A stretch of 64,000 nt of DNA from a virus (Duplodnaviria > Heunggongvirae > Uroviricota > Caudoviricetes > Herelleviridae). The stretch is from the IMG/VR virus record IMGVR_UViG_2974580128_000001, one strand, 5' to 3'. A program made the translations under genes and the position numbers. Of this stretch, positions 9,087 through 56,071 are shown piece after piece. The notes beneath the pieces are model-generated. The model saw nothing but the letters and a program-made list of their open reading frames with translations, ran no database searches and was not told where the DNA came from. The stretch's first letter is position 1; each line of letters opens with the position of its first letter.

Positions 9087-9605
9087 TTACTCTCCGCTTA
9101 AACAGTCTATGTCTATTCGAACCCTACTAATAGCTTTACCTAATAAGTTTAGCCCCTGCCATTGTTCTGGGTAGTTAATACGTAAGTCATCCGCTTTTAG
9201 ACCAACACCCCAAATCCTATCATAAGGACTAGCTTCAACAAATACTGTATCCTTCGGAAAGCTTAACAGAAAATCTAATAGCTCCTTATTCTGTGTAAAC
9301 TTATAAAAATTTCCATAGTAAACAATGCGTTCTCTAACAAGTTGCCATGCAGATTCATCGAAGTTCTTCACTTTTCTCCCCAATGCCTTTGCTTCTTTAG
9401 GTGTAGCAACTTGTAATATCTTACTTCCTGTCTCAAAATCACCAAAATAAATAGCTTTGTTATACATCATAAAATGTTCGCATGTAGGGAAAGATATGGT
9501 ACCTTCTAAGGCAGTGAATGATGCAGGATACCATTGAGATAAACATTCTTTTCCTATTTTATTTGGATTTTTAGTAGTATGTCCCCAAAAAGGCACAATA
9601 GCCAT
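9087..9605 (-). CDS. NADAR-domain (DUF1768 / YbiA-like) protein
   Basis: FWGH...FP(T/S)CEH(F/Y)...YNKA motifs typical of the NADAR/YbiA fold; 172 aa. Confidence 0.6.
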   Translation of the reverse strand: MAIVPFWGHTTKNPNKIGKECLSQWYPASFTALEGTISFPTCEHFMMYNKAIYFGDFETGSKILQVATPKEAKALGRKVKNFDESAWQLVRERIVYYGNFYKFTQNKELLDFLLSFPKDTVFVEASPYDRIWGVGLKADDLRINYPEQWQGLNLLGKAISRVRIDIDCLSGE

Positions 9606-10888: not shown

Positions 10889-12133
10889 CTATTTCGCTTT
10901 AAAATTGTAAACAGGCTTAACAATCTTTTGAATGTCTACTGTATCCTTGATTATTTCTTTGATTTCGTCAGCATCCTTGTATGCTTTTGGTGCTTCATCT
11001 AGTGTACTTTGAACAACAGATGTTGTATAAATACCAGACATTGTTTGTTTAAACTCGTCTAAGTCAAGTAATTCTTTTGCTTTAGAACGAGACAATACAC
11101 GTCCTGCTCCATGGGGTGCAGAATTATTCCAATCAGTGTTTCCTTTTCCTACACCGATGATAGAGCCTTCTTTCATGTTTAAAGGAATAACAAGTCTAAC
11201 ACCCTCCTGTGCATCTGTGGCACCTTTACGAATAGTGTTGGAATCTACATCAATATAATTATGAATAGAGTCAAATAAGTCAACTACAGTCCAACCCATG
11301 TTAGCAACAATCTTATCAATGATAGTTTTACGATTCATGTAAGCATAACGTTGTGCTAGTTGCATATCGTTTAAATAGTCATCCACTGCGGAACCTTCTA
11401 AGTATGGCAATTGTGGTTTAACATTGACAGCTTTAAAATTCTTAATAGCCTCTTGAATTTCTGACTGTCTGCCTTCTTGCTTAAGTGTTTCAATCATAGT
11501 TGCTAAACCTTTGTCATCACGTTCATGGTATAAATCCGCTTTCTTCTGGTGATATTGGGCTACTTTAAGTCCTAAAGAACGGGAACCTGTGTGAACTAAC
11601 AAGTAGTAATTGTTTTCGTCATCTTTACTTAATTCGATAAAATGATTTCCACCACCTAAAGTACCTAAAGACAAGGTAACACGTTCAATAAATGGTTCTT
11701 CTGTTGCACCTTTAAACGTCATAGATTCTAACATGTGCTTAATCGTATTCGGTACAGTAGGATGAAGTTCGTCCAAATTTTCTCTAATGTTAAACCCAGA
11801 AGGAACCACTTTGTTAATCACTGCATCCAATTTAGCCCATTCGGTATCTGTCGTGTCTTCTGGCTTTTCAATTTGAGCTACCATAATACCACAACCTACA
11901 TCTACGCCAACAATAGAGGGTACAACTCGATTGATACCATCTGGATAATGAATTGTTGTCCCAACTGTAGAACCTTTACCATAGTGTGCATCTGGCATAA
12001 TTCTAACAATGCCACCGTCTGTTACCGGTTCATTAATCATTGTTGTAACCTGACCGATAGTGCCTTCATCCACCGTGTTAATAAACATTTTCGCATCGGT
12101 ATACTTACCATTAAGTTCAATTAAGTTATTCAT
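10889..12133 (-). CDS. rtcB: RtcB-family RNA 3'-phosphate ligase
   Basis: 414 aa; GGGNHFIEL and HGAGR motifs characteristic of RtcB. Confidence 0.85.
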   Translation of the reverse strand: MNNLIELNGKYTDAKMFINTVDEGTIGQVTTMINEPVTDGGIVRIMPDAHYGKGSTVGTTIHYPDGINRVVPSIVGVDVGCGIMVAQIEKPEDTTDTEWAKLDAVINKVVPSGFNIRENLDELHPTVPNTIKHMLESMTFKGATEEPFIERVTLSLGTLGGGNHFIELSKDDENNYYLLVHTGSRSLGLKVAQYHQKKADLYHERDDKGLATMIETLKQEGRQSEIQEAIKNFKAVNVKPQLPYLEGSAVDDYLNDMQLAQRYAYMNRKTIIDKIVANMGWTVVDLFDSIHNYIDVDSNTIRKGATDAQEGVRLVIPLNMKEGSIIGVGKGNTDWNNSAPHGAGRVLSRSKAKELLDLDEFKQTMSGIYTTSVVQSTLDEAPKAYKDADEIKEIIKDTVDIQKIVKPVYNFKAK

Positions 12134-12314
12134 CAGTTTTCTCCCCCACTAATACTTTCTTCATCTTTTCATCTAGTCTCTGTATAATCTCTTGTTGTTC
12201 CTGAGCTAGCTTTGCATGGTGTTCACGCTGTTTTTTATATTTAGCATAAGCAAATAGTTCTTCTGTAGTTAGTTCTTCTAATTTACGTGTAAATGGTGTA
12301 GCTTCAAATTCCAT
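12126..12314 (-). CDS. small coiled-coil protein
   Basis: 62-aa ORF coupled to rtcB (ATG of rtcB overlaps its stop). Confidence 0.45.
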   Translation of the reverse strand: MEFEATPFTRKLEELTTEELFAYAKYKKQREHHAKLAQEQQEIIQRLDEKMKKVLVGEKTDE

Positions 12315-12402
12315 TACAAGTACCTCCTTGTTTTTTATACTTAAAGTATATCATGTAAGATAAAAAGAAGCAAGCAGTTTTTACACTACTTGCTATACTT
12401 TT

Positions 12403-43310: not shown

Positions 43311-44843
43311 TTATTTAAGTGCTTCTTTTACAAAGTCGTATTCTGGTTTATTTAACACAGACAACATCATTTCTTCTGGGGAAGTAATTTCTCCGCCTAA
43401 CACTTGTGTTAAGATGTTTGTGGAGAACCCAGATACTAAAGCTGTTCCTTTTTCGTCAAAACGTACAGGTGTATTATCATGACGAGAGTTTACATTCCAG
43501 AATACTACAGATGGTAACTCGTAACCTGCCTGTTCGAACTTAAGTTTTGCTTGTTCATAGTTAGTGTAACCTGCCACACCTTGGTCAAATTCCATATCGG
43601 AAATAATAACGATTTTTGAAGGTAAATCATTTTGTGGTGTGTGGTTTTTCACCGCAGTAGATAAAATCAAGTCGAATACTTTTTGTAAATTTGTATTTCT
43701 AGCATTGTATGAACATTTATCGTAAGCTTTCATCTTATCCATAAGTGTACCTGACAATGGTAAGTTTACTAAACGAGGTTGTTCAGAAAATACGATGAAA
43801 TGACCTTTGAATGCACCACTTAAGCGTTCAGCAGTGTAGATAGCTAAACCTTCTGCAACTTCCCAAGGGGTAACATTTTCTGTACCACCCCATGTCATAG
43901 AACCAGAAGTATCCGCAACTACAATTGCATTATCTTCAATATCTTTCAACACATCGTCCATAGATTTCCATGTTGCTTCTAGTGAACGGTCTAATGTTCT
44001 GTAGTAACTTCTGCTACCATAAGCCCGAATTACTTCATGAGGTAACATGTTCTTTGCGTTCATTGTTACTTCCCCAGATTCTACTTTAGAAAGTAAATCT
44101 TCATATTCGTCTGGCATGTGTAATTGCAAAGCTTTACGGTATTTGAACAATGCTTTAGAGGATACTTGGTTCAAATCAATCTTATGGTATTCCTTGCTTG
44201 CTAACCGAACTTCAATTACATTTAAATAATCACGTAATTTAGCAATCATTTTACGATAACGAGTTAGACCTGCTTTACCTTCAAAACCTAAATAGTTAGC
44301 AATACGAGCACCTTGATTACGTTTCTTGCTATTTGGAGAACTTACATTAGCTAACCATTTACCTAGTAATGATACAGGCTCACCTTCTGACATGTTTTTA
44401 ATATCAGATGTTAGTTGGTTACCGATGATACGTGCACCTTCTGTATCCACAAAGTGAATACTACGTTTGTGTGCGTACTCCATAGTTTCAAATAAGTCTG
44501 TCCAACGACCAACATATGCCATGTACTCCATTAAAGTAACGATTACTTGCTTGTTTTGGTTACGACCATCCACTAAGTATTTGATTGCTTCTAGGTAAGC
44601 GGAACGTTCACCCAATCCACCTAAACGGATATTACGTAAGTGTACCAAATTGCGTAATGCTAACTCTGGGTTTTCATCGTAGGCTTTAGCAAACATGTTT
44701 CGTACATCTCCTAAACGACCACGCATAGCCCCTGCTTGTGCAAAGAAGTCTAAGTTAGCGTTTAAAGTTGATGTATAAGTTTTAGCTCCATTTTCTGTAG
44801 AACCAACAGTTGTTTCTTCTTTTAGGTTGTCTAAAAATGACAT
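43311..44843 (-). CDS. rsr: Ro60-like protein (Rsr ortholog: TROVE domain plus vWA/MIDAS)
   Basis: 510 aa; N-terminal TROVE-like helical region and C-terminal vWA domain with MIDAS motif DTSGSM; same architecture as bacterial Rsr. Confidence 0.7.
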   Translation of the reverse strand: MSFLDNLKEETTVGSTENGAKTYTSTLNANLDFFAQAGAMRGRLGDVRNMFAKAYDENPELALRNLVHLRNIRLGGLGERSAYLEAIKYLVDGRNQNKQVIVTLMEYMAYVGRWTDLFETMEYAHKRSIHFVDTEGARIIGNQLTSDIKNMSEGEPVSLLGKWLANVSSPNSKKRNQGARIANYLGFEGKAGLTRYRKMIAKLRDYLNVIEVRLASKEYHKIDLNQVSSKALFKYRKALQLHMPDEYEDLLSKVESGEVTMNAKNMLPHEVIRAYGSRSYYRTLDRSLEATWKSMDDVLKDIEDNAIVVADTSGSMTWGGTENVTPWEVAEGLAIYTAERLSGAFKGHFIVFSEQPRLVNLPLSGTLMDKMKAYDKCSYNARNTNLQKVFDLILSTAVKNHTPQNDLPSKIVIISDMEFDQGVAGYTNYEQAKLKFEQAGYELPSVVFWNVNSRHDNTPVRFDEKGTALVSGFSTNILTQVLGGEITSPEEMMLSVLNKPEYDFVKEALK

Positions 44844-45029: not shown

Positions 45030-45615
45030 CTTTATGCTCTGGCAACCTAAGAGGTTAGAGCTATGGCAAAATACCAAAACCTTTTTGATATGTAACAAGA
45101 ATCTATTTTATACGTTGCTCTACCAACTGAGCTACAGGGGGAATCATCCTCCCGGCAGGACTCGAACCTGCGACCAACGGCTCCATAGGCAATAAAAATC
45201 GCTGTTAGATTCTTTATGTTCCGGCACCCATCAAGGATGGAACTATAGCTATGCTAAAACCGTTTTATTTATGTATCAAGAAGCAGTTATGCCACCAATC
45301 GGCATCCTCATAATTTGGGTTGAGAATATAGGAGTTGAACCTAAGTAAGGGTTTGCTGTATGCTTCTTTATGCTTCGGCGCCCATTAAGGGTGAAGCTAT
45401 GACCTAAGCCAAAACCGTTTTATTTATGTAACAAGAACGCATTAACTTTAAGCTTTACCAATTAAGCTATACCACCAATGGTGGCAGTTGGATTCGAACC
45501 AACAACTCACATTTTTCAGATGTATTAGTTTTAAAAGTTTGCTGTGGCGTTCTTTATGTTCCGGCTACCTGTTAGGTTGGAACTATGACATATGTCAAAA
45601 CCTTTTTATCTTGTC
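45030..45615 (-). ncRNA. three tandem circularly permuted tRNA-like modules (Y-RNA/YrlA-like tRNA mimics) separated by four copies of a ~75-nt repeat
   Basis: minus-strand order in each module is T-arm (e.g. GGTCGCAGGTTCGAGTCCTGCC), closed acceptor-like hairpin, D-arm (e.g. GTAGCTCAGTTGGTAGAGC), all bracketed by an imperfect closing stem; repeat units A 45031-45108, B 45196-45270, C 45352-45428, D 45540-45612 show compensatory changes in an internal hairpin. Confidence 0.55.
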
Positions 45616-45926: not shown

Positions 45927-46008
45927 TGGGGAGTGATGGAGTTGCACCACCCGAGCTTTCGCAACTGATTTACAGTCAGCCCCGCTACTACTTACGGTAT
46001 AACTCCCC
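45927..46008 (-). tRNA. tRNA-Tyr(GTA) candidate, type II, atypical T-loop TGCAACT
   Basis: acceptor GGGGAGT/ACTCCCC, anticodon stem GCTGA/TCAGT with loop CTGTAAA, long variable arm. Confidence 0.35.
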
Positions 46009-46204
46009 GCATAGGTATGTATATATCAATACAATGTACAAGAACTTTTAGTGAGGTAGCTCTCATAGTGTATTAATGGGGTACATTGTGTAACTTCAAC
46101 TAGTATTGCCTCACACGTGACTAGTCTTATATACACAATGCCTACATACAACCCGATAGACCACCCTTGGTACGCATATTAAGAGGCGCAGGGTGATACG
46201 AATA

Positions 46205-46275
46205 TATGGATTGCAGGATTCGAACCCGCACCCTTTGGTTGGAAGCCAAAGATACTACCCTTATACTAAATCCAC
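46205..46275 (-). tRNA. tRNA-Gly(TCC)
   Basis: acceptor GTGGATT/AATCCAT, anticodon loop CTTCCAA, T-arm GCGGGTTCGAATCCTGC. Confidence 0.65.
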
Positions 46276-46395
46276 ATAATGTTAATAGGCGGGTACCCGA
46301 CAGCGAAGTATCATTCCTGTCTTGTCATTCTCCTATTAACTCCATAATACCTTGCCTAGAGTTGAGCTAGGTCTCACATTTATCGAAGGTATTAA

Positions 46396-46468
46396 TCGGG
46401 AAAGCAGGACTTGAACCTACGACCCCACGCTCCCAAAACGTGTGCGCTACCAACTGCGCTATTTCCCG
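46396..46468 (-). tRNA. tRNA-Pro(TGG)
   Basis: acceptor CGGGAAA/TTTCCCG, D-arm GCGCAGTTGGTAGCGC, anticodon loop TTTGGGA, T-loop TTCAAGT. Confidence 0.75.
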
Positions 46469-46547
46469 TTAACTTATACATATATTATAACACAAACTTA
46501 CATGATGTCAACAACTATTTGTAAGTTTTTTTAATTTATCCATTCGG

Positions 46548-46634
46548 GACAGTGTGCTTTAACCATTCAGCCACCCGCAGGGGTAACCCGCAGGACGGGA
46601 TTCGAACCCGTATACCACTGTCCTATTGGATAGG
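46548..46634 (-). ncRNA. fourth permuted tRNA-like module (T-arm ACGGGTTCGAATCCCGT, then D-arm-like GCTGAATGGTTAAAGC) closed by 8-bp stem GGACAGTG/CACTGTCC
   Basis: T-arm precedes D-arm on the transcribed strand; no complementary acceptor strands at the ends; outer inverted repeat at 46548-46555 and 46627-46634. Confidence 0.45.
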
Positions 46635-46789
46635 CTTGTGTACCTGTCATCTTCCGATTACACACACCTAGTCTAGTTACCGTACCAATAGATTTGACAG
46701 GAATCTAGGGTAACGCCCAATATGGTGTTAATTTACCTTGTATTCTGTTACAGGTTTGCAACCCTGAACAAGGATGACCAATCCTAATG

Positions 46790-46859
46790 ATATGCGAGGG
46801 GATTTGAACCCCTATCTACTTCATAGGTCACTTTATCCACTTAAGCTACGCATACCTAT
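46790..46859 (-). tRNA. tRNA-like gene, anticodon undetermined (short D/anticodon region)
   Basis: acceptor GTATGCG/CGCATAT and T-arm AGGGGTTCAAATCCCCT are clear; body is ~6 nt shorter than canonical. Confidence 0.35.
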
Positions 46860-46912
46860 TTAATTTCTAGCTAGGTAACTAAATTCACTGCACCTTGCGC
46901 AGAGTACAGCTA

Positions 46913-46985
46913 TGGAGCATAGCGGACTTGAACCGCTGACATCTACCTTGCAAGGGTAGCGCTCTCCCAACTGAGCTAATGCCTC
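46913..46985 (-). tRNA. tRNA-Ala(TGC) with G3:U70
   Basis: D-arm GCTCAGTTGGGAGAGC, anticodon loop CTTGCAA, T-arm AGCGGTTCAAGTCCGCT, G3-U70 wobble in acceptor. Confidence 0.75.
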
Positions 46986-46993
46986 GTATAAAA

Positions 46994-47066
46994 CACCTCC
47001 GCTGAGATTCGAACTCAGAATGCGGGATTAGAAATCCTGTGGTTTATCCAATTAGCCTACGGAGAT
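46994..47066 (-). tRNA. tRNA-Arg(TCT)
   Basis: anticodon loop TTTCTAA, T-arm CTGAGTTCGAATCTCAG; acceptor with one mismatch. Confidence 0.55.
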
Positions 47067-47265
47067 ATACTTACTTAAACGGAAGATAAATTGTTTGACC
47101 AATTCTAAGTTTATTAGGGTCTTTAATACTTCTATTCTGACCATGCAACCTAATTAGTCTCCATAACCAAGGCTTGCCATAATATTTTCTAGCAATAGAA
47201 TACATTGTGTCACCTTTTTCAACTGTGTATCTCATAACAATTACCCTCCTAAGTTATAAATATGG

Positions 47266-47634
47266 CTATATATAGGATACTCCTGTAAACAATTCAATTG
47301 CTTCAATTTCAGTATGGAAGTTTTCCCATTCTAAACATTCATAGAAATCTTGTAAGATATGCTTGTCTTTCCTGTAAACAGTCTCACCTTTATGGGCTTT
47401 CTCACAGATTTCTCTAACAGCATCCACATTATACTTACCACCAGTTTTATACTGCTCTAAACCAGAATTTAATAAAGCTCGTTGTACTTCTTCACTTTTA
47501 TCCCCTGCTTTCCAAGAGTCAAAAGCTTTATCATACAATGTATCTTCCATGTGTTCACCTTCTACTTCCATGATTGATTGAATAAATCTTTGCCACTTAG
47601 AAGGCTCCTTGTGTTTAACTTTACGAAAACTCAT
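47266..47634 (-). CDS. hypothetical protein inside the tRNA array
   Basis: 122-aa ORF, RBS ggaggctaatc. Confidence 0.5.
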   Translation of the reverse strand: MSFRKVKHKEPSKWQRFIQSIMEVEGEHMEDTLYDKAFDSWKAGDKSEEVQRALLNSGLEQYKTGGKYNVDAVREICEKAHKGETVYRKDKHILQDFYECLEWENFHTEIEAIELFTGVSYI

Positions 47635-47659
47635 GATTAGCCTCCATTATCTTTAATGA

Positions 47660-47747
47660 ACCGAGGAGGAGGGACTCGAACCCCCAAACGCTTTTACACG
47701 TCTATGACTTTTCAAGAGTCAATTTTTTCCAGTTATGATACTCCTCG
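47660..47747 (-). tRNA. tRNA-Ser(TGA), type II
   Basis: acceptor CGAGGAG/CTCCTCG, anticodon stem TGACT/AGTCA with loop CTTGAAA, long variable arm ACGTGTAAAAGCGT. Confidence 0.7.
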
Positions 47748-47858
47748 AAAAAGAAATTGATTGACTAGTACTGTTAGTTGACTAGCCAACCGGAACTACT
47801 TAAACCGAACTCTTTAAACAGCTTTAGTAGTTATTATTTAGGTTTTTAGATAAACAAC

Positions 47859-48119
47859 TTACCAAAACCAAACTAGATTTAATGCTAGTCGTTTACTAAT
47901 AATAGGTGATTTTCTATGTCTAACCGATTTAAACTTGCGTACATTCCCCTTATATGGTGTAAAGTCAATCTTACAGGGTTCAACATAATTAAATTTACGG
48001 TTAGCTCGTTTAATTACTGCTTGCTTTTGTTTAGAAGCTTTAATTTCTTTTTCAAATGCTTCTTTTTCAATGTTGTTAGCTATAGTTGCTAAATGTTCAG
48101 TCATAAAGCTCATATCCAT
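47859..48119 (-). CDS. hypothetical protein inside the tRNA array
   Basis: 86-aa ORF, RBS aaggagagatgg. Confidence 0.45.
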   Translation of the reverse strand: MDMSFMTEHLATIANNIEKEAFEKEIKASKQKQAVIKRANRKFNYVEPCKIDFTPYKGNVRKFKSVRHRKSPIISKRLALNLVWFW

Positions 48120-48137
48120 CTCTCCTTACATGTTCTA

Positions 48138-48224
48138 TGGAAGGCATGGGATTCGAACCCACACATGCTGTTACACATCTACTTGGTTTCCAACCAAGCC
48201 TCTTTACCGTTTGAGTAACCTTCC
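48138..48224 (-). tRNA. tRNA-Ser(GGA), type II
   Basis: acceptor GGAAGGT/GCCTTCC, anticodon stem CTTGG/CCAAG with loop TTGGAAA, long variable arm, T-arm GTGGGTTCGAATCCCAT. Confidence 0.75.
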
Positions 48225-48318
48225 GTCTCGGGAGCAGGCGTGTTTGTCCAAAGGGGACAATACATAATCTTCTGTGCATATTGTTCCCTAGGCTTTATGC
48301 ACACCCGTTATCTGCATA

Positions 48319-48504
48319 CTAACAGACCCGCCAATTTTCTAACACTTTTTCTAATGCTTCGTACGGACACATTACTGTCTTACCGTGAACACCATGTATT
48401 CTCAAAATAATATAATGTTCATTTATCTCGGAGGTAACAAAGTATATCTTATCCTTCACTAAACCTAAACTTCCGTTTAAACCAATGAATTTTAAATACA
48501 TCAT
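48319..48504 (-). CDS. small hypothetical protein
   Basis: 61-aa ORF, RBS ggaggtaac. Confidence 0.4.
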   Translation of the reverse strand: MMYLKFIGLNGSLGLVKDKIYFVTSEINEHYIILRIHGVHGKTVMCPYEALEKVLENWRVC

Positions 48505-48786
48505 GTTACCTCCTAACTATGTATAACCCATAAAGCATCATGGGGGGACTGTAGTATGCCCAACCTGCGGGGATGCTCCGCTCTGAATCCGTAGAAATCA
48601 GCCACAATTCGATATTTATTTAGTGAAAAAATTAGTTAAGATTCGACTGCTTGACAAAGGCAGTCTATGTCACTGGCAAGGATTTGCACCTTGCAGTCGG
48701 GAACGAGCCGTCGCCTATCTATCCCTCAAATAAGCTCCAAATACCCTACGTTTTTAGTATTGGCTACTTATACGTCTACCTATTCC

Positions 48787-48812
48787 GCCACAGTGACTAT
48801 GGAGCTGACGGG
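48787..48812 (-). ncRNA. tRNA/tmRNA-like 3' fragment (GGGTTCAATTCCCGTCAGCTCCA)
   Basis: minus-strand sequence resembles the T-arm plus 3' acceptor strand of tmRNA (..GGGUUCAAcUCCCGcCAGCUCCAcca) but no partner 5' acceptor strand within 100 nt; lies 70 nt from the GIY-YIG gene. Confidence 0.3.
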
Positions 48813-48878
48813 AATTGAACCCTACAACTCCACTTGTGCTATATTGTAAGTATAACATATAAAAAGGAGACTTACAAC

Positions 48879-49601
48879 ATGACACAAGGAATTTACTTAA
48901 TTACAAATATTGTTAACAATAGACACTACGTAGGACAATCAAAAGATATTGAACGTAGGTGGAACGAACACAGACATAGTACTTTTAATACTAATGCTAC
49001 TGATTACGAAACTCCCCTACACCGTGCATTTAGAAAACACGGAATGGAAAACTTCATATTTGAAATCCTAGAAGTTGTACCGAACCATTCGGAACTTAAT
49101 TCTATCGAGAACAAGTATATTGCAAAGTATAACTCTATTGGTAATGGTTACAACCAGATAATCACTTCACGCAATGGTCTTTCAAAAGAAGAAATTAATA
49201 AGAAACGTGAATTAAAATATGGTGTAACTAGAGACAAGCTTTACAATCAGCTAATGCTTGATTCTTTTAGTAAAGTCGCTAGCTACTATGGTGTATCCTC
49301 AAACGCTATTAAAAAATGGTGTAAAGACTATGACCTACCTACATCTGCTAAAGCTTATGACAATCCCGAAAAGTCTAAAAGATATAGTGAACTTATGAGA
49401 AAGTTAGCTACAGAGTCATCAACCAAAAAGAAACGAATAGCTATGATTGATAAGGACACCTCTGTTGTTATAAAAGAATTTGATTCTGTTAGAGAAGCCT
49501 CAGAATACATCGGAACTTCTACTAGTAATATAACAAGAGCAGTACATGGTTATGAGGGCAGAACCACTTCATGTGGCTACCGTTGGTCATATATAAAATA
49601 A
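48879..49601 (+). CDS. GIY-YIG homing endonuclease (free-standing, opposite strand to the tRNA array)
   Basis: N-terminal GIYLITN...YVGQS (GIY-YIG motif), conserved R and E downstream, C-terminal basic DNA-binding region; ATG 48879 after RBS aaggag. Confidence 0.75.
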   Translation: MTQGIYLITNIVNNRHYVGQSKDIERRWNEHRHSTFNTNATDYETPLHRAFRKHGMENFIFEILEVVPNHSELNSIENKYIAKYNSIGNGYNQIITSRNGLSKEEINKKRELKYGVTRDKLYNQLMLDSFSKVASYYGVSSNAIKKWCKDYDLPTSAKAYDNPEKSKRYSELMRKLATESSTKKKRIAMIDKDTSVVIKEFDSVREASEYIGTSTSNITRAVHGYEGRTTSCGYRWSYIK

Positions 49602-49603
49602 CA

Positions 49604-49680
49604 AAATGGAACTGAGGGGAATCGAACCCCTGTGTTGACGTAGAACCATACAAAATTCTACGGGCGTAGTTACTAGTTTT
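49604..49680 (-). ncRNA. tRNA-like 3' fragment (T-arm AGGGGTTCGATTCCCCT plus CAGTTCCA) with no identifiable 5' half
   Basis: clear T-arm and acceptor-like 3' strand; upstream is a 6-bp stem CGTAGA/TCTACG with a 12-nt loop instead of canonical anticodon/D arms. Confidence 0.3.
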
Positions 49681-50186
49681 AATCTACATTAAGGCTACAA
49701 CTAATAACTGAAATTACCTTAACTGAGTGGTAAAGCCTCTCCTGAGTTATCCACTTTTACCTCAGCGTTGTCGGTTAATGAATCCTCTAGGTAGAACCGA
49801 CCCTAATCTAGAGGGGTAAGTGTGTAGCTAGTCTAAAACTAGGCTACAGCTAGTAATTCTTCGTTTTTAGCAGTTATATTTACTGCGATGATTAAGTCAT
49901 CACTCTGCCCGCTATTCATATACTTCTTACGCCAGTCGAAACCAAAACAGCCCCAACATAAGAATTTCTTTTGACTAACCCTACCCTTCCGGCAGGGTCT
50001 AATCAAAAGTATACAATTAAAAAATGAAAATGAGTTACGGAAAATGTAACGTCTCCACCACCGGACTATAAGGGTAAGTTGTTCCGGTCTTTAACCTAAG
50101 TACTTTACTTAAATCTAACAGGACAGTCTTCATTACGTAAACTACTTAACCATGTAAAACGTAAAGGTCAATTTCCGTTGACCTAA

Positions 50187-50272
50187 TACAAGAGGAGGGA
50201 TTCGAACCCTCACGCCTATCACAGGCATGGCATTCTAAGTGCCACATGTCTACCAATTCCAACACTCTCGCA
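50187..50272 (-). tRNA. tRNA-Leu(TAG), type II
   Basis: anticodon stem TGGCA/TGCCA with loop CTTAGAA, long variable arm GCCTGTGATAGGC, T-arm GAGGGTTCGAATCCCTC. Confidence 0.7.
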
Positions 50273-50448
50273 TAATCACTTTTTAAACTAGATTACTTAT
50301 GGTTTCTCACTTCTGAAAAAATACCACTTTATATATCAACATTTTTCTTATGAATGGGTTAAGATATGTTTTAACGAAAAAGAGGCTAAAAGAGTATTTC
50401 CTCAAAATTTTCGGTCAAGTTAATCTAGTAAGGAAAAGTGTAACCTTA

Positions 50449-50520
50449 TGTGACTGCTCAGAATCGAACTGAGATTCATGTTTCCACAGAACACTGCCTT
50501 ACCATTAGGCTACAGTCACC
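50449..50520 (-). tRNA. tRNA-His(GTG) with encoded G-1
   Basis: acceptor GTGACTG/CAGTCAC preceded by extra G, D-arm GCCTAATGGTAAGGC, anticodon loop CTGTGGA. Confidence 0.7.
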
Positions 50521-50591
50521 ATCATGTGTTCCTTACAAGAATTACTATACAGCATCTTGTAAGGAAAGTCAACACTTACATATAAATTTAT

Positions 50592-50813
50592 TTAAAAAAG
50601 TTTTGATGAATCTAATTGAGAGAAACTTTCGGGTAGAGAACCTAGCTCTTCCATGTACTCTTGGTCAATCTCGTAAACAGTTAACTCCGTTACTTCATTT
50701 TCAATGGTAAGTTTCATTGCTTCTGCTGTTTGTATACTGTGTCCTTCTACTTGAAGCTTATCATCAAGATAAATGCCTTCCCAGTCTCCTGCAACTACAT
50801 AATCTGCTTTCAA
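50592..50813 (-). CDS. hypothetical acidic protein
   Basis: 73-aa ORF. Confidence 0.45.
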   Translation of the reverse strand: MKADYVVAGDWEGIYLDDKLQVEGHSIQTAEAMKLTIENEVTELTVYEIDQEYMEELGSLPESFSQLDSSKLF

Positions 50814-50821
50814 GATATTAC

Positions 50822-51073
50822 CTACTTTCTCCTCAATTTCTGATAAAAATTATTATCCTTGTAATCTTCCTCGTGGGCATAAAATTTTTTCATATCATAT
50901 GTCCAACAAGTTTCTTCTAATCGTTTATGATGTGTCAATGTTACTTCATCATCAAAACGACCTTGATTTAATTTATGCCTGTAATTTCTGTTAACCATTC
51001 TTTTTATGTCTCGAACAGTTGAATCCTTCATACAAACATAACGGTAATAGGGTTTTCTGTAACTTCTACTCAT
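50822..51073 (-). CDS. hypothetical basic protein
   Basis: 83-aa ORF, RBS aaggaggac. Confidence 0.5.
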   Translation of the reverse strand: MSRSYRKPYYRYVCMKDSTVRDIKRMVNRNYRHKLNQGRFDDEVTLTHHKRLEETCWTYDMKKFYAHEEDYKDNNFYQKLRRK

Positions 51074-51129
51074 TGTAAGTCCTCCTTAATAGGTACTTAC
51101 AATTTATTTAACCTTTTTTTCATTTTTTA

Positions 51130-51372
51130 TAGCCCTCTTTCGAACAGACGTCTTAAAGTCTTACCCTCATTATTTAAAACATATACCGAGTTAACATAAG
51201 CCTTTGTCTCTCCTTTGTTGTCAACTCTATATTCATAGGGTTCATTTGGAACACGGGTAATCTCTTCATGTTTAGAATTAAGTAAAGAAAAAGCATTTTC
51301 TTGTTCTAAAAGAAATTGTACCCCATCAATAAGTTCGATAAAAGGTTTAGACGTAAACTAACGACAGGTCAT
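51130..51372 (-). CDS. candidate ORF with in-frame TAG at codon 5 (ATG ACC TGT CGT TAG + 76 sense codons)
   Basis: 76-codon open frame with no ATG/GTG/TTG start other than the ATG located 4 codons upstream of an in-frame TAG; could be a pseudogene or evidence of amber read-through. Confidence 0.25.
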
Positions 51373-51392
51373 AGTTTTCCAATTAAGGCAAA

Positions 51393-51466
51393 TACCAGTG
51401 AGAGGATTTGAACCTCTGACACCCGCCTTATCAAGACGATGCTCTAACCAACTGAGCTACACTGGT
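51393..51466 (-). tRNA. tRNA-Ile(GAT)
   Basis: D-arm GCTCAGTTGGTTAGAGC, anticodon loop TTGATAA, T-arm AGAGGTTCAAATCCTCT. Confidence 0.75.
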
Positions 51467-51619
51467 GTGACCCATGTGTCAGGACTTTCACCTGTTCTCG
51501 GGGTGCCCCGCCTCTCTACTAATCTCCTCATTCGGTGCCCCTAATAGAGTGACTAGAGATAGTTAGCAGTAAAAATTATATATCATGAATCAAATTTTTA
51601 CTGCATCCTATATACACGA

Positions 51620-51691
51620 TACCGTCTACAGGATTTGAACCTGTGACATCCACCTTGTAAGGGTGGCGTTCTCCCACTGAACTAAGACGGT
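51620..51691 (-). tRNA. tRNA-Val(TAC)
   Basis: D-arm GTTCAGTGGGAGAAC, anticodon stem CCACC/GGTGG with loop CTTACAA, T-arm ACAGGTTCAAATCCTGT. Confidence 0.75.
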
Positions 51692-51698
51692 GAAAAAT

Positions 51699-51793
51699 AC
51701 GGAAGACAGGATTTGAACCTGCGATATAGGAGTTTTAGTGCACTCATTGTCTCCCACGGTATCCGTTGCGTATTGCCATCACGCCACTCCCGT
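51699..51793 (-). tRNA. tRNA-like gene, unassigned (possible type II)
   Basis: T-arm GCAGGTTCAAATCCTGT and 3' acceptor CTTCCGT are clear; candidate 5' acceptor ACGGGAG lies 95 nt away; anticodon arm not resolved. Confidence 0.3.
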
Positions 51794-51800
51794 ATGCTAA

Positions 51801-51873
51801 CCGACAGTAAAGGAATCGAACCTCTATCACTAGATTCGTAGTCTAGCATCCTATCCAATTGAACGAACTGTCG
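51801..51873 (-). tRNA. tRNA-Arg(ACG)
   Basis: perfect acceptor CGACAGT/ACTGTCG, anticodon stem CTAGA/TCTAG with loop CTACGAA. Confidence 0.7.
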
Positions 51874-51975
51874 CTATAGGCTAGCAATTACGCAGACTGA
51901 CTATAGGCACCTTCGTCCCGTCACCTGTAAGTGCCATCCTACAGGTTGTCCGTGGCACCGCAATGTACTAACCGA

Positions 51976-52049
51976 TGTCCCCACAGGGATTTGAACCCCG
52001 AACCCCCCGATTAAAAGTCGGGTGCTCTAGCCGATTGAGCTATGAAGAC
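51976..52049 (-). tRNA. tRNA-Lys(TTT)
   Basis: D-arm GCTCAATCGGCTAGAGC, anticodon stem CCCGA/TCGGG with loop CTTTTAA, T-arm CGGGGTTCAAATCCCTG. Confidence 0.75.
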
Positions 52050-52099
52050 AGTTGTGTTTTTCAAGATAACCCTCTTGAAAAACCGTTACTAATAGAAAA

Positions 52100-52175
52100 A
52101 CTAAGGGTCTCGACTGACAGATTTGAACTGTCTGCTCCTCCTAAGAGGCGTGTTACCAAAGCCATACACCAACTC
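52100..52175 (-). tRNA. tRNA-like gene, unassigned (non-canonical anticodon region)
   Basis: T-arm GACAGTTCAAATCTGTC and a 5-of-7 acceptor; central region has only a CCTC/GAGG stem with a 4-nt loop. Confidence 0.3.
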
Positions 52176-52183
52176 TTCGAGAA

Positions 52184-52257
52184 TATCCCCTACAGGATTC
52201 GAACCTGTGACCCCCTGATTAAGAGTCAGGTGCTACCACCAACTGAGCTAAGGAGAT
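52184..52257 (-). tRNA. tRNA-Lys(CTT) candidate
   Basis: acceptor ATCTCCT/AGGGGAT (one G-U), D-arm GCTCAGTTGGTGGTAGC, anticodon stem CCTGA/TCAGG with loop CTCTTAA, T-arm ACAGGTTCGAATCCTGT. Confidence 0.55.
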
Positions 52258-52272
52258 AAGATTACCAATAGC

Positions 52273-52346
52273 TAGTTAAGCCTTACGGAATCGAACCGCC
52301 ATGAGGTTATGAAGCTCACATAGACCACTAGACACAAAACTAGCTT
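52273..52346 (-). tRNA. tRNA-like gene with CAT anticodon loop (TTCATAA) and atypical T-arm/acceptor junction
   Basis: perfect 7-bp acceptor GCTAGTT/AACTAGC; T-loop TTCGATT present but 5 extra nt between T-stem and acceptor. Confidence 0.3.
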
Positions 52347-52449
52347 ATTGATAAAATTCTATATAGATAATTGTATGCAATGTTCGCACTAACTAACCAG
52401 ATAACCAGTCAATCATTCAAAACATTAATTTGTGAGTTTCCGCTCACAA

Positions 52450-52521
52450 TGCTGATTGAGAGAATCGAACTCCCATTCCCGGGTTACAAAGCCGGAGTAA
52501 TAGCCGTTATACTAAATCAGC
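52450..52521 (-). tRNA. tRNA-Thr(TGT)
   Basis: perfect acceptor GCTGATT/AATCAGC, anticodon loop TTTGTAA (C-C mismatch closing pair), T-arm GGGAGTTCGATTCTCTC. Confidence 0.6.
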
Positions 52522-52560
52522 GTAACCCCTCAATAGAGGGGAATTATTATACTAAGTTAC

Positions 52561-52858
52561 CATACCCGTAGGTATTTGTTTGAGCTTGTTTAAACATAAT
52601 GCTCTTGATAGTTAAGTCGTTGTACTTTTCATCGTCTTCATCATCAAGGTACACATCAACGTTAACGTTCTTACCGGAAATACCGATTGTTTCGTCTTTA
52701 CCAACTGTTAAGTCTTTACTGTTGAAGGATACATCAAAGTAAATGCTATCTTCTTTTGTACGACTACCGAACGAAACTCTGTCACCGAATAAATCTAAGC
52801 TTCGAGAGTTGATTACAACAGGTTGTAACCCACCTTCAAATTGAATAGTTACTGTGTA
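52561..52858 (-). other. 100-codon open coding-like frame directly in frame after the TAG stop of the AAA ATPase gene (possible read-through extension or pseudogene fragment)
   Basis: ...ENQ TAG YTVTIQFEGGLQPVVINSRSLDLFGDRVSFGSRTKEDSIYFDVSFNSKDLTVGK... TAA; no plausible start codon in the first ~85 codons. Confidence 0.35.
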
Positions 52859-53638
52859 CTATTGATTTTCAATATTAAGGATGTTTAAGTCAGCAATAGC
52901 TTCACCAAATGGGATACCAAAGCTTAATTCCAATGCAATTGCTCGTAAGCAGTCATAGTTTAACTTAATTCTACGGCTAAACTTAACAACACTGTCAATT
53001 TCACCATAGTAAGCTTCGTCTAACTTATCTTGCAAGTAAGTGCGAATTTCATCTGCATCAGGATATTCGAAACGTAAATGATAATGGAAACGTCCCGGAC
53101 GGTTAAGCATAAAGTCATTTACACGACTTAAGCTATTAACAGTAAGAGCGTAGATACGTTTACGTTGTGATAAACCATCGAATAAGCTCAATAGTTTTTC
53201 TTGTGGTTCACGACCGTCACGGTCATTGAATACTTTTTCAAATTCATCGAACAGGATAAGAGACTCTTGGTCAATACTGTCAATAAATTCTGCAATCCCC
53301 GGATAAGCTTCTGTAATTAAGATAACAGGCATATCCTCTTCAATAGCTCGTTGAGATAAGATTTGAGTAAATAGTGATTTACCAATCCCTTTGTCTCCAC
53401 TTAAAATGATTCCTAAGCTACGATTAATTGTTTTAAATGTGTGTAGCACTTTTTCAATTTTAGCTAAACGGTCACCGTAAACTTTAGGTTCTTTCAATTC
53501 AAAATCGTCTGTTACTACTAGTGAGAACCCAGACATTGGATTGAATCGGACTTTATAAGTTTGCGCAGGCAACTTATCATAAGTTTTAAGGTCGTTTGCA
53601 TAAATTTCATAGTTACTACCATAGTTGATTACTTTCAT
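52859..53638 (-). CDS. AAA-family ATPase
   Basis: Walker A GDKGIGKS and Walker B LILFDEFEK; ATG 53638 after RBS aagggga; the ORF-track N-terminus would overlap tRNA-Phe. Confidence 0.7.
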   Translation of the reverse strand: MKVINYGSNYEIYANDLKTYDKLPAQTYKVRFNPMSGFSLVVTDDFELKEPKVYGDRLAKIEKVLHTFKTINRSLGIILSGDKGIGKSLFTQILSQRAIEEDMPVILITEAYPGIAEFIDSIDQESLILFDEFEKVFNDRDGREPQEKLLSLFDGLSQRKRIYALTVNSLSRVNDFMLNRPGRFHYHLRFEYPDADEIRTYLQDKLDEAYYGEIDSVVKFSRRIKLNYDCLRAIALELSFGIPFGEAIADLNILNIENQ

Positions 53639-53677
53639 AAATATTCCCCTTATTCGTGTTTTATTAGCATTTGCTAA

Positions 53678-53751
53678 TGGAGAGGGGTGGAATTGAACCA
53701 CCGACCCCTAGGGTTTCAATCTAGTGCTCTAACCTACTGAGCTACCTCTCC
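53678..53751 (-). tRNA. tRNA-Phe(GAA)
   Basis: perfect acceptor GGAGAGG/CCTCTCC, D-arm GCTCAGTAGGTTAGAGC, anticodon loop TTGAAAC, T-arm GGTGGTTCAATTCCACC. Confidence 0.7.
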
Positions 53752-53873
53752 GTGTCAATTTGGACTTATCCCCCACGTGGTTACTAAGATAAGTCCTATG
53801 CCTTTGAAGTGTGGATACTCAAAAAATGAGTACAGGTACTAAAAATCTGATGACAAGTCAGATTTATGTCATA

Positions 53874-53947
53874 AGCAGAAGGTGAGATTCGAACTCACGT
53901 TCAGGGGTTTGCAATCCCTAGCCTTAACCCACTTGGCTACTCCCGCA
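53874..53947 (-). tRNA. tRNA-Cys(GCA)
   Basis: anticodon stem AGGGA/CCCCT with loop TTGCAAA, T-arm GTGAGTTCGAATCTCAC. Confidence 0.6.
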
Positions 53948-54186
53948 TTGGCATCCCTCTAGGTTTTTATCTGCATCGGGACTCACATAAACTGATAAGT
54001 GAAAACAGGGCACTAGTCTGCTTTACACCTGCGCTATCAGAACCTAGACTCGGCAACACTGCCTTAGATGACTTTAATCTTGTAAACACGTCACATTCTT
54101 CAACAATTACCAGTAGAGTGCTACATACCAGTAATTCGTTCCTGTGAAGGATAGTACACTATAACTATCACCGCTGTCCAAGAATA

Positions 54187-54258
54187 CACGCCGTGAAGGA
54201 TTCGAACCCCCGTCTTCCGGGTTGGAGCCGGAAATGATAGCCACTACACCAACAGCGC
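54187..54258 (-). tRNA. tRNA-Trp(CCA)
   Basis: anticodon stem TCCGG/CCGGA with loop CTCCAAC, T-arm GGGGGTTCGAATCCTTC. Confidence 0.7.
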
Positions 54259-54468
54259 AAGATTCGGAGGGGAGGGACTAGCAACCCTCCGAAAAATGTA
54301 AGATAATGAGAGATTAAAACATGCCACTATTAAAAGTGGAATAGGTAATTAAGGATTCGAACCTTACAAGCCCTTACTGCTTACCTTGTAAACTTATAGT
54401 ATCATGTGTTGTACCGAAAGTCAACACTTTTTATAAAAATAATAGGGAGAAATATTTCTCCCTAAAAA

Positions 54469-54542
54469 TGGACTATACCGGAATTGAACCGATGACCTGT
54501 CAGTTATGAGCTGACGGCTCTGACCCACTGAGCTAATAGTCC
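54469..54542 (-). tRNA. tRNA-Met(CAT)
   Basis: perfect acceptor GGACTAT/ATAGTCC, D-arm GCTCAGTGGGTCAGAGC, anticodon stem GTCAG/CTGAC with loop CTCATAA. Confidence 0.75.
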
Positions 54543-54749
54543 GTGTAATAATACCACGAAATAAACCTTAGTAAGTCATATAGTCCCAGAAAGGGAGACA
54601 TATGAAACTAGTGTTGAATGCCATAATCGTTTAATAAATGTGACTGAGAGAGTAATAAATTTCTTAGGCATGTCCATATGCCTCCTTTCCAATAATGATA
54701 GTTTTAAGATATAAACAGAATAAATAAAAGAGAAAATAATAATGAATAA

Positions 54750-54821
54750 TAGCGCATGAGAGAGTCGAACTCTCGATTCCGGTTCGAAAGACCGGTGTCT
54801 TGACCGCTTGACCAATGCGCC
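54750..54821 (-). tRNA. tRNA-Glu(TTC)
   Basis: anticodon stem CCGGT/ACCGG with loop CTTTCGA, T-arm GAGAGTTCGACTCTCTC. Confidence 0.7.
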
Positions 54822-54826
54822 ATAAA

Positions 54827-54901
54827 CGAGCTATATGGGACTTGAACCCATGACCTTCTCCGTGACAGGGAGACGAGCACTCCTGACTGCTCCAATAGCC
54901 C
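54827..54901 (-). tRNA. tRNA-Asp(GTC)
   Basis: D-arm GAGCAGTCAGGAGTGCTC, anticodon stem TCTCC/GGAGA with loop CTGTCAC, T-arm ATGGGTTCAAGTCCCAT. Confidence 0.7.
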
Positions 54902-55026
54902 ACTGTTTCCCCAACCACCGCCACCTAGGGGATTCGTACGTCTACGTGAGTTTTCTGGTTATACATTATTGTTCAAGACAATAGTTGTACGAGTGGAATA
55001 CCAATTTACCACTCTGCGGTTCCTAT

Positions 55027-55098
55027 TGCGGTAGGTGGGAGTCGAACCCACTAAAGCTTGGTTATGAGCCAAGTGCCTAAACCGTTCGGCATCTCCGC
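55027..55098 (-). tRNA. tRNA with CAT anticodon (second Met or tRNA-Ile2/lysidine type)
   Basis: anticodon stem CTTGG/CCAAG with loop CTCATAA, T-arm GTGGGTTCGACTCCCAC; acceptor has one mismatch. Confidence 0.55.
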
Positions 55099-55801
55099 AG
55101 TAATACAAGTCTGGTTAAAAACTCAAAACTTAATAGATTAAGGGCTTTTCTTCCTGCTTCATATACACTCACTGCATTCGGTCACATACTCAGAGAGGCT
55201 GAACCATCGGGAGCTACCCAATAGCTTCTCTCTGCCTTTAATGTATGGTCTAGCACGGTGGCTAACAACGTTCACCTAAACATTCAGCATTAAAAGTATT
55301 ATTTTACATATAACCCATATGTCTTCTGTAATATTTTCATCCAACGCTGACTTAAGCTACTTGTACCAAGGTCTCTTGTTAAACCTGTATTTCTACAGTT
55401 CTCGTCAAAGGGAGTCTTTTGAGTTTTCCAAGGTCTGCCAAGCTTCTCACACTTCCACCTAACTTGGATTCTTTTCCACAGGAACGTCTATTGTATCCCC
55501 CAAGAGTCTTGTACCTTACAATCCATGTATACTCCACATAACGCTTAACTGATATTAGCTTTTACTAATAGTTACTCCTATGTTACCATAAGACCTACCT
55601 GCAACCCAAAGCACTATCGCACCTTCGGTTACATCCAGATTCACGCCACGTTATCCTAGCAAGCTGTTCAAACTTTCTGCACTAGGTTCAAAATCTATTA
55701 AGTTTTCAATTTTTAACCACTAACTTGTGGTGTAATACTAATATAGCATAACATTACAAAGTTGTAAACACCTTTTTGTAAGTTTTTTTGATTTTTTTTG
55801 A

Positions 55802-55890
55802 TGGAAGGTAAGGGGGTCGAACCCTTACACCGGATTTCTCCGACCTAACTGATTAGCAATCAGCCCTCTTAACCATTTGAGTAACCTTCC
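55802..55890 (-). tRNA. tRNA-Ser(GCT), type II
   Basis: acceptor GGAAGGT/ACCTTCC, anticodon loop TTGCTAA, long variable arm, T-loop TTCGACC. Confidence 0.7.
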
Positions 55891-55999
55891 AAAAGCAAAA
55901 AGGGAACCCCTGTAATTAAACAGGGGTAAGAGAGATGTCTCTAAAAGCCTACAACCATTATAACATAGAAACATAGTTTGTACAGCCGTAACTGTACAA

Positions 56000-56071
56000 C
56001 TGTCAGGACAGGGTTCGAACCTGTATCGCAACCTTCAAAGGGTCGTGTCCTACCTGTTAGACGACCTGACA
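56000..56071 (-). tRNA. tRNA-Gln(TTG) (U1:A72)
   Basis: perfect acceptor TGTCAGG/CCTGACA, anticodon stem CGACC/GGTTG with loop CTTTGAA, T-arm ACAGGTTCGAACCCTGT. Confidence 0.7.

Follow-up and report, generated by a model that had tools for sequence, protein, structure and literature searches.

We analyzed a window of 64,000 nucleotides, which corresponds to bases 1-64000 of the Enterococcus phage EfV12-phi1 (MH880817.1 / NC_048087.1). By megablast of positions 9000-15000, the two are 100% identical and their coordinates are alike. EfV12-phi1 belongs to the genus Schiekvirus (Herelleviridae, Brockvirinae), has a genome of 152,770 bp, and was isolated on Enterococcus faecium TX1330. About 30 related Enterococcus phages match positions 9000-15000 at 93-98% (megablast). 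Our subject is the rtcB gene of this phage, and which RNAs its product (gp031) might repair. An earlier, sequence-only reading of the window had recognized the gene and proposed that it helps the phage to withstand host nucleases that cleave tRNAs.

10889..12133, minus strand: rtcB (gp031), 414 amino acids, ATG start; predicted RtcB-family RNA ligase (3'-phosphate / 2',3'-cyclic phosphate to 5'-OH)

The RtcB-family protein gp031

The open reading frame (ORF) at 10889-12133 is identical to gp031 of EfV12-phi1, which is labeled 'protein RtcB' or 'tRNA splicing ligase' in the deposited records. So, both the gene call and the name were already public. gp031 matches RtcB in Pfam (PF01139) with E = 1.1e-59 and 203.2 bits (the cutoff is 27), across positions 15-425 of the 426 in the model, and it matches PHROG 1075 ('tRNA splicing ligase') with E = 1.6e-137. 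The subfamily models in NCBIfam, including the PrfH-associated 'release_rtcB' and PRK09588, match only the C-terminal part of gp031 and score far under their cutoffs. Thus, the clade of gp031 lacks a curated equivalog. In database searches, relatives that are ~50% identical to gp031 were found in Firmicutes (an Enterococcus prophage, Lysinibacillus, Bacillus, and Streptococcus) and in Listeria and Bacillus phages. Across Schiekvirus genomes, conservation of gp031 is 98.8-100%.

To map the catalytic residues, we aligned a profile of 20 family members to RtcB from P. horikoshii. D48/H50, D78/C81, and N163/H164 of gp031 correspond to D65/H67, D95/C98, and N202/H203 of the archaeal enzyme, and H181, H291, H341, and R345/R349 correspond to H234, H329, H404 (the histidine that carries guanosine monophosphate, or GMP), and R408/R412. 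All of these residues are invariant in the alignment of 20 sequences. The predicted GMP-binding histidine of gp031, H341, lies in the motif SAPHGAGRVLSR and aligns with H404 of P. horikoshii and with H337 of E. coli. The predicted metal ligands are D78, C81, H164, H181, and H291 (D95, C98, H203, H234, and H329 in P. horikoshii). The sequence-only reading had singled out the histidine and the metal-binding residues as the decisive check on its assignment, and all of them are present.

Compared to the E. coli and P. horikoshii enzymes, gp031 has the same Pfam family, the same fold, the nucleophilic histidine, both metal sites, and the asparagine and arginines that bind GTP or phosphate. The E. 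coli protein is of similar length (408 amino acids vs. 414) and is 27% identical to gp031 (E = 9e-40, with the same motifs aligned), and identity to the archaeal and human enzymes is ~20%. Unlike rtcBA of E. coli, gp031 has no RtcA, RtcR, or Archease annotated alongside it. An AlphaFold2 model of gp031 has a predicted local distance difference test score (pLDDT) of 91.4 and a predicted template modeling score (pTM) of 0.88. When this model was compared to the PDB with Foldseek, all 16 of the 16 significant matches were RtcB proteins (E from 8e-24 to 2e-15, query template modeling (TM) score of ~0.6-0.72).

Thus Pfam, PHROG, the catalytic residues, and the fold bear out the presence of an RtcB RNA ligase at 10889-12133, and the assignment could hardly be made firmer by sequence analysis. 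Given its family, fold, and catalytic residues, we predict that gp031 is catalytically competent as an RtcB-family RNA ligase.

RtcB is not unusual in phages. Homologs are present in 684 of 50,697 phage records, including many phages of only 36-60 kb, and they are routinely annotated. The phage groups with RtcB include Mycobacterium, Bacillus, Listeria, Brevibacterium, Caulobacter, haloarchaeal, and Enterococcus phages. The RtcB proteins of Listeria Pecentumvirus, Bacillus Bastillevirinae, mycobacteriophages, and haloviruses are orthologous or homologous accessory genes. One of the closest copies in cellular genomes, that of Enterococcus sp. AZ103, is in a prophage, near terminase genes and with the toxin-antitoxin pair HicAB ~1.5 kb away, and the copy in Lysinibacillus is chromosomal. 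gp031 is an unremarkable accessory gene with a correct annotation, of a kind that is common in phages, and this finding was already known. What we add is a corrected picture of the operon and a set of unannotated RNA genes: a Ro60-fold gene, YrlA-like elements, a transfer-messenger RNA (tmRNA), a ROOL RNA, and an odd tRNA-like element.

The tRNA array and the case for tRNA repair

The sequence-only reading linked rtcB to a tRNA array at 45900-56240. The array is real and encodes tRNAs for 20 of 20 amino acids.

45927..56235, minus strand: array of 25 tRNAs that covers all 20 amino acids (the call for Tyr is weak)

With its default settings, ARAGORN identified 23 tRNAs and a tmRNA at 46204-56235, all on the minus strand. 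A second tRNA-Met, at 55027-55098, is supported by Rfam and by the RefSeq annotation. tRNA-Tyr(gta), at 45927-46008, was detected by ARAGORN only once its threshold was slightly relaxed, and by Rfam at 27.7 bits. Two other calls are discrepant as well: tRNA-Ser(tga) at 47660-47748 was found by ARAGORN and by the E-value mode of Rfam and is absent from RefSeq, and the 'tRNA-Pseudo-ATG' of RefSeq at 46789-46855 was called by neither tool. (Like tRNA-Tyr, both are on the minus strand.) If RtcB repairs tRNAs, those of the array would presumably be its substrates or would benefit from the repair.

RtcB is the only recognizable RNA ligase in EfV12-phi1 or in Schiekvirus. No Rnl or Pnkp is annotated in the EfV12-phi1 genome, and the Rnl-type ligase of Listeria phages has no match by tblastn in the whole genome. 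Among phage records, 332 contain an Rnl-type ligase; these include 185 from phages of Staphylococcus, 73 from Bacillus, 56 from Listeria, 13 from Lactobacillus, and none from Enterococcus. Of the related Herelleviridae, the Staphylococcus phages have an Rnl-type ligase, and the Listeria phages and some Bacillus phages have both ligases. Thus, some form of RNA ligase is retained across the Herelleviridae. We also considered gp038 and gp039 as a split Rnl-type ligase; neither protein resembles the Rnl of Listeria phages. gp039 (16031-16192, minus strand) is labeled 'DNA ligase' in RefSeq, which is probably a misannotation: it has only 53 amino acids and is unlike the RNA ligase of the Listeria phages.

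In Listeria phage LP-048, the ortholog of gp031 (50% identity) is part of a compact cluster that adjoins tRNAs. The order of the genes is a Ro-like 'RNA-binding protein', XRE, a small ORF, an HD phosphohydrolase, another small ORF, RtcB, a small ORF, DUF1768 (NADAR), a small ORF, 'tRNA amidotransferase', and an Rnl-type RNA ligase. EfV12-phi1 has orthologs of the Ro-like protein (44% identity), XRE, RtcB, and NADAR (gp026; 45% identity to the protein encoded two genes downstream of rtcB in LP-048), and no orthologs of the Rnl and HD genes. In Schiekvirus, rtcB is not adjacent to tRNAs or to the Ro-like gene, whereas the Listeria phages cluster these with a second (Rnl) ligase.

To examine the linkage of rtcB and tRNAs more broadly, we used the 80 closest RtcB loci on viral contigs, which form 34 lineages after dereplication at 90% identity of RtcB. 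There is a tRNA within 10 kb of rtcB at 29 of the 80 loci. After dereplication, 11 of the 34 lineages have a tRNA within 10 kb and 9 have one within 5 kb. Almost all of the nearby tRNAs in these lineages (65/66) are co-oriented with rtcB. Within 0-2.5 kb of rtcB, the density of tRNAs is 1.67 per 10 kb, about twice the 0.71 per 10 kb seen at 7.5-10 kb; this comparison is internal to the set, between distances from rtcB. The linkage of rtcB and tRNAs across viral lineages is suggestive.

By analogy with the characterized RtcB enzymes, gp031 would guanylylate its His341 in a reaction with GTP and Mn2+. Once the 2',3'-cyclic phosphate was opened, GMP would be transferred to the 3'-phosphate of the RNA, and attack by the 5'-OH end would then reseal the break. 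The likely targets would be host or phage tRNAs that are cut by metal-independent host ribonucleases, such as anticodon nucleases or RNases of the HEPN or toxin type. Resealing them would keep translation working during infection and would complement the phage's own complete set of tRNAs. We think it somewhat probable that gp031 does reseal tRNAs cut by metal-independent host RNases. Our analysis establishes the gene, its fold and active site, its genomic context, and the comparative linkage, whereas its enzymatic activity, its substrates, the adversary, and the timing of its expression are what we infer. Circumstantial support comes from its status as the sole RNA ligase, from the co-oriented tRNAs in viral lineages, from the cluster in LP-048, and from the Ro60-fold protein gp087 and YrlA-like RNAs that lie beside the tRNA array (see below).

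Phage T4 uses Pnkp and Rnl1 to repair tRNA and to counter the anticodon nuclease PrrC. The proposed logic is the same, in that a phage ligase restores tRNAs that were cut by a suicide RNase of the host. In T4, a kinase-phosphatase heals the ends before an ATP-dependent ligase joins them, whereas RtcB seals them directly. Also, unlike T4 and PrrC, no cognate host nuclease is known for EfV12-phi1. The sequence-only reading had included VapC-type enzymes among the nucleases that RtcB might counter. This item is doubtful: the VapC toxins, which contain a PIN domain, are metal-dependent and are expected to leave 3'-OH and 5'-phosphate ends, so their products would not be substrates for RtcB. Of the remainder of that proposal, the enzyme and the tRNA set stand, and the context is circumstantial. 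The idea itself is not new. Religation of cleaved tRNAs was proposed for the RtcB of jumbo phages (Iyer et al. 2021, PMC7824862), and the same idea was stated for phages in PMC9503650. Repair of damage from anticodon nucleases is plausible and was already published for phages in general.

Several observations weigh against tRNA repair by gp031. The clade of gp031 has no characterized member, and in the literature that we searched, we found neither an experimentally characterized phage RtcB nor a study of RtcB from Schiekvirus. We found no match to Archease from Pfam in the eight neighboring ORFs that we scanned, and the annotation of the 152.8-kb genome lists none. In T. fusca, which lacks Archease, RtcB is single-turnover in vitro (PMC4604427), so the lack of a recognizable Archease is a caveat for the catalytic efficiency of gp031. 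In EfV12-phi1, rtcB is 34 kb from the tRNA array, and 23 of the 34 viral lineages have no tRNA within 10 kb of rtcB. Furthermore, RtcB is found in hundreds of small phages and prophages that have no tRNA array (it is common in small actinophages, for example), which implies that RtcB can be of use without a tRNA set.

The physiological substrates of RtcB from bacteria and from phages are poorly defined. EfV12-phi1 is strictly lytic and relevant to therapy, RtcB is its only RNA ligase, and it also encodes a full set of tRNAs, a Ro60-like protein, and RNAs that resemble Y RNA, so it would be a tractable system for the question of whether phage RtcB repairs tRNAs that host defenses have cut.

A Ro60-fold protein, structured RNAs, and alternative roles

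Besides the tRNAs, the region around the array encodes a protein with the fold of Ro60 and several structured RNAs.

43311..44843, minus strand: gp087, predicted Ro60/Rsr fold, with DUF2828 and DUF7788/vWA; annotated only as 'RNA-binding protein'; adjoins the tRNA array
45086..45199, minus strand: YrlA-like element 1, full-length match to RF02553, 45.2 bits, E ~2e-8
45425..45532, minus strand: YrlA-like element 2, full-length match to RF02553, 34.3 bits, E ~3e-5
46533..46633, minus strand: YrlA-like element 3, full-length match to RF02553, 28.4 bits, E ~2e-3 (weak)
49604-49954, minus strand: one-piece tmRNA, RF00023, 122 bits; tag peptide AKNEELLAVA (ARAGORN); unannotated in the record
51698-51793, minus strand: tRNA-like element of 96 nucleotides, with good acceptor, D, and T arms, and with ~30 nucleotides in place of the 7-nucleotide anticodon loop
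55124-55710, minus strand: full-length ROOL RNA, RF03087, 260 bits (the gathering score is 99), between tRNA-Met and tRNA-Ser; not in RefSeq

gp087 has no relevant match in the PDB at the level of sequence, and its similarity to Ro60 was revealed only by a search with its predicted structure (pLDDT of 90.3). The top 8 matches in the PDB were Ro60 or Rsr proteins, including Ro60 from the Thermus phage phiLo. These were full-length alignments with E from 1e-7 to 1e-5 and query TM-scores of 0.48-0.62, and there was no other full-length match. We consider gp087 to be a possible partner in RNA quality control.

The DUF2828-type Ro-like gene abuts or sits within tRNA arrays in very distant phages as well, namely Enterococcus phage VRE9_1, Bacillus phage FADO, and an Escherichia Felixounavirus.

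The YrlA-like elements lie in the 830-nucleotide gap upstream of gp087 and slightly beyond. All three score below the gathering score for RF02553 (YrlA, a bacterial Y RNA), which is 69. Unlike ordinary tRNAs, they have a permuted order of T-arm, hairpin, and D-arm. Pairing in the basal (Ro-binding) stem is poor when compared to the model; a possible 8-bp basal stem flanks element 1 (AGAAUCUA / UAGAUUCU). The trio recurs in the more divergent Enterococcus phage 163, where element 1 is ~97% identical but the Ro-like protein is only 80% identical. At E <= 0.01, we found no YrlA-like RNAs upstream of the Ro-like gene of Listeria phage CKA15, and VRE9_1, FADO, KVP40, and a Felixounavirus likewise had none in the vicinity of this gene.

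A report from 2014 had described phages in which Y RNAs are close to Ro60 genes (PMC4201824). More recently, a study of CKA15 detected the Ro-like ortholog in virions and suggested that it is Rsr-like (2025; PMC12282133). The same study proposed that abundant noncoding transcripts from upstream of the gene are Y RNAs that pair with this protein; it did not connect RtcB to them, and neither its text nor its supplement gives the timing of expression of the RtcB ortholog, CKA15_050 (PMC12282133).

These components resemble the rsr-yrlBA-rtcBA genes of Salmonella, which form one operon, are induced by tRNA halves with 2',3'-cyclic phosphates, and are implicated in tRNA repair (PMC7790460). As in Salmonella, the genome of EfV12-phi1 contains a Ro60-fold protein, YrlA-like RNAs that mimic tRNA, and RtcB. 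Unlike in Salmonella, the parts are dispersed: rtcB lies at 10.9-12.1 kb, and it is 43.3-46.6 kb that holds the Ro-like gene with the Y-like RNAs. Also, the Ro-like protein belongs to a divergent DUF2828 type, and the matches to YrlA are below threshold. The parallel is real but loose. With some skepticism, we suggest that RtcB, gp087, the three YrlA-like RNAs, the 96-nucleotide element, and the full set of tRNAs could form a kit by which the phage maintains translation. A particle of Ro60 and Y RNA would capture broken or misfolded tRNAs and would pass them to RtcB, as the sole ligase, for resealing. This would be a viral and dispersed counterpart of the bacterial operon.

The same components raise the alternative that gp087 and the YrlA-like RNAs route damaged structured RNAs, such as tRNA or rRNA, to repair by RtcB or to decay, with a range of targets that would be broader than damage from anticodon nucleases. 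The fold of gp087, the YrlA-like elements directly upstream of it and their recurrence in phage 163, the Salmonella precedent, and the presence of the CKA15 protein in virions with its proposed pairing to noncoding RNAs all fit this idea. So does the organization of the Listeria phages, in which the Ro-like gene and rtcB are close together, just four genes apart. This is not the case in EfV12-phi1, where gp087 and rtcB are 31 kb apart, and we saw no Ro-like gene within 10 kb at any of the 80 viral RtcB loci that are closest to gp031. The Ro-like family is found in 696 phage records (from phages of Escherichia, Mycobacterium, Salmonella, Vibrio, Listeria, Staphylococcus, Campylobacter, and others), and it is common in many groups that are outside of the top ten for RtcB, such as the Felixounavirus and KVP40-like phages. 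The sub-threshold scores of the YrlA matches and the poor fit of their outer, Ro-binding stems also speak against it, as do RtcA (the cyclase) and RtcR (a CARF-AAA+ sigma54 activator), neither of which appears when we check the annotation of the EfV12-phi1 genome. On balance, we consider this broader quality control to be unlikely. Another candidate substrate is rRNA or mRNA that was cut by toxin-type (MazF-like) endoribonucleases, which would be triggered when host expression is shut off. RtcB from E. coli is reported to religate 16S rRNA that was cut by MazF (PMC5416887), and RtcB2 is reported to repair damaged ribosomes together with PrfH (PMC9304027). The frequent occurrence of RtcB where there is no tRNA array, both in phages and in prophages, including the Enterococcus prophage copy that is ~1.5 kb from HicAB, would also make sense if the substrate were not tRNA. 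But gp031 scores just 84.2 bits against the PrfH-associated TIGR03073, with a cutoff of 271.8; it has no prfH or release-factor-like neighbor; and in a third of lineages, rtcB is accompanied by clusters of co-oriented tRNAs, which favors tRNA as the substrate. We find this alternative even less convincing.

In archaea and in metazoa, RtcB is the tRNA-splicing ligase. Maturation of phage RNAs, by splicing a protein-dependent tRNA intron or by circularizing or joining the tRNA-like element, a Y-like RNA, or ROOL, would draw on that role, on the conservation of the 96-nucleotide element, and on the several structured RNAs in the array. It is very improbable: the intron mode of ARAGORN found no credible intron-bearing tRNA, the 20 amino acids are all served by uninterrupted tRNAs, no splicing endonuclease is annotated in the genome, and the tmRNA is of the standard one-piece type. 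We give hardly any credence to a role in DNA, in which RtcB would seal or cap breaks with 3'-phosphates during replication or repair of the phage. rtcB does lie among nucleotide-metabolism and replication-type genes, and RtcB is reported to be able, in vitro, to ligate 5'-OH DNA strands to a 3'-phosphate end (PMC8051266). But rtcB has no contextual tie to DNA repair genes; the conserved linkages that we found are to tRNAs, a Ro-like gene, NADAR, and an RNA ligase. Of the roles that we considered, repair of tRNAs is the one that we favor.

The 96-nucleotide tRNA-like element deserves a closer description. In place of the anticodon arm, it has an additional hairpin of 4 bp and a stem of 5 bp with an 18-nucleotide loop. 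The element is kept in phage EFDG1 with two substitutions, one of which changes a G.U pair in the acceptor stem to A-U, and EFDG1 has an additional 123-bp insertion directly after it. We considered it as an intron-bearing tRNA that RtcB might splice. The intron mode of ARAGORN made a sole poor call, at a threshold of 80%, and tRNA-Tyr is encoded elsewhere. We consider the element to be neither a credible intron-bearing tRNA nor the scar of a deletion.

The tmRNA abuts a homing-endonuclease gene on the plus strand (48879-49601). ROOL RNAs assemble into nanocages made of RNA alone, and their occurrence near the tRNA islands of phages is known (PMC12286853).

The predicted transcription unit of rtcB

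The sequence-only reading described rtcB as translationally coupled to a small upstream ORF and placed it at the end of a long operon that also encodes a LarB-fold enzyme. Around rtcB, we identified these features:

12126..12314, minus strand: gp032, a helical, charged ORF of 62 amino acids; PHROG 23831; overlaps the start of rtcB by 8 nucleotides (ATGAATAA)
12345..12373, minus strand: promoter-like site, TTGCTT-17 nt-TATACT with an extended -10 TG, between gp033 and gp032
12369..12394, minus strand: terminator-like hairpin with a T-run, a 10-bp stem and a 6-nucleotide loop and then TCTTTTTATC, between gp033 and gp032
9087..9605, minus strand: gp026, NADAR domain (Pfam E = 9e-47), 1.3 kb downstream of rtcB in the same predicted unit

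The overlap of gp032 and rtcB is real. Since each of the two ORFs also has its own Shine-Dalgarno sequence, coupling is plausible. gp032 is 99% identical in other Schiekvirus genomes, but it is not conserved beside rtcB outside of the genus: we found no gp032-like ORF beside rtcB in Listeria or Bacillus phages or at any of the 80 viral RtcB loci. We had considered gp032 as a conserved cofactor of RtcB. It is unlike the small ORFs that flank rtcB in the Listeria and Bacillus phages, and given its absence from the other viral loci, it is not a general partner of RtcB. gp032 appears to be specific to the genus.

The LarB-like assignment of gp035, which lies upstream, is supported by the NCBIfam model for LarB (E = 3e-46 and 157.6 bits, just under the cutoff of 175). 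The operon itself needs to be redrawn. The hairpin at 12369-12394 is a putative terminator that would part the rtcB unit from the upstream genes that include the LarB-like gene, with readthrough possible. The promoter-like site was read by eye from the sequence and was missed by a scan for the consensus; it is conserved in EFDG1 and in EFP01. The region upstream of the rtcB unit is 99% identical in the three species that we compared (including EFDG1 and EFP01), so it does not provide a covariation test of the hairpin or the promoter. In Listeria phage CKA15, a terminator that was mapped experimentally is annotated at the equivalent spot, just upstream of rtcB.

Minus-strand genes continue past rtcB: gp030 begins 63 nucleotides after it, with a strong ribosome-binding site, and there are about nine co-directional genes, from gp030 to gp022, including the NADAR gene gp026. 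A scan of the sequence downstream of rtcB found no terminator-like site before 8523 or 7714. Given the hairpin and the promoter upstream, and no terminator downstream, rtcB does not close the unit to which gp035 belongs. Instead, rtcB is probably the second gene of a leftward unit of ~4.7 kb that contains NADAR, with its promoter just upstream of gp032.

The core of this unit, gp032-rtcB-gp030, is conserved within the genus, and its flanks are mosaic. For instance, EFDG1 has a 213-bp gene instead of the 648-bp gp034 (13182-13829), and a 327-bp gene replaces NADAR.

We noticed a similar junction elsewhere in the window, with a hairpin at 18966-18928 (minus strand) that overlaps a near-consensus promoter (TTGACA-17-TATACT with an extended -10 TG, 18956-18928). 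It looks like terminator/promoter junctions, as at 18966-18928 and 12394-12345, recur between the leftward units.

Genes related to NAD are dispersed in the leftward block, all on the minus strand. Besides the LarB-like gene (13813-14571, with an N-terminal extension of 76 amino acids) and NADAR (9087-9605), the genes at 33606-34181, 34351-35478, and 37512-38276 comprise a NadR-like cytidylyltransferase plus AAA_28 protein and two annotated PnuC-like transporters. This scattered set suggests metabolism of NAD(+) or ADP-ribose, or counter-defense.

On the plus strand, the large subunit of terminase is annotated as two coding sequences with an HNH endonuclease gene between them (58826-59887, 60135-61073, and 61361-61951). 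At the Rfam gathering score, there are no group I or group II introns in the 64-kb window. The split coding sequences suggest an interruption of the intron or intein type.

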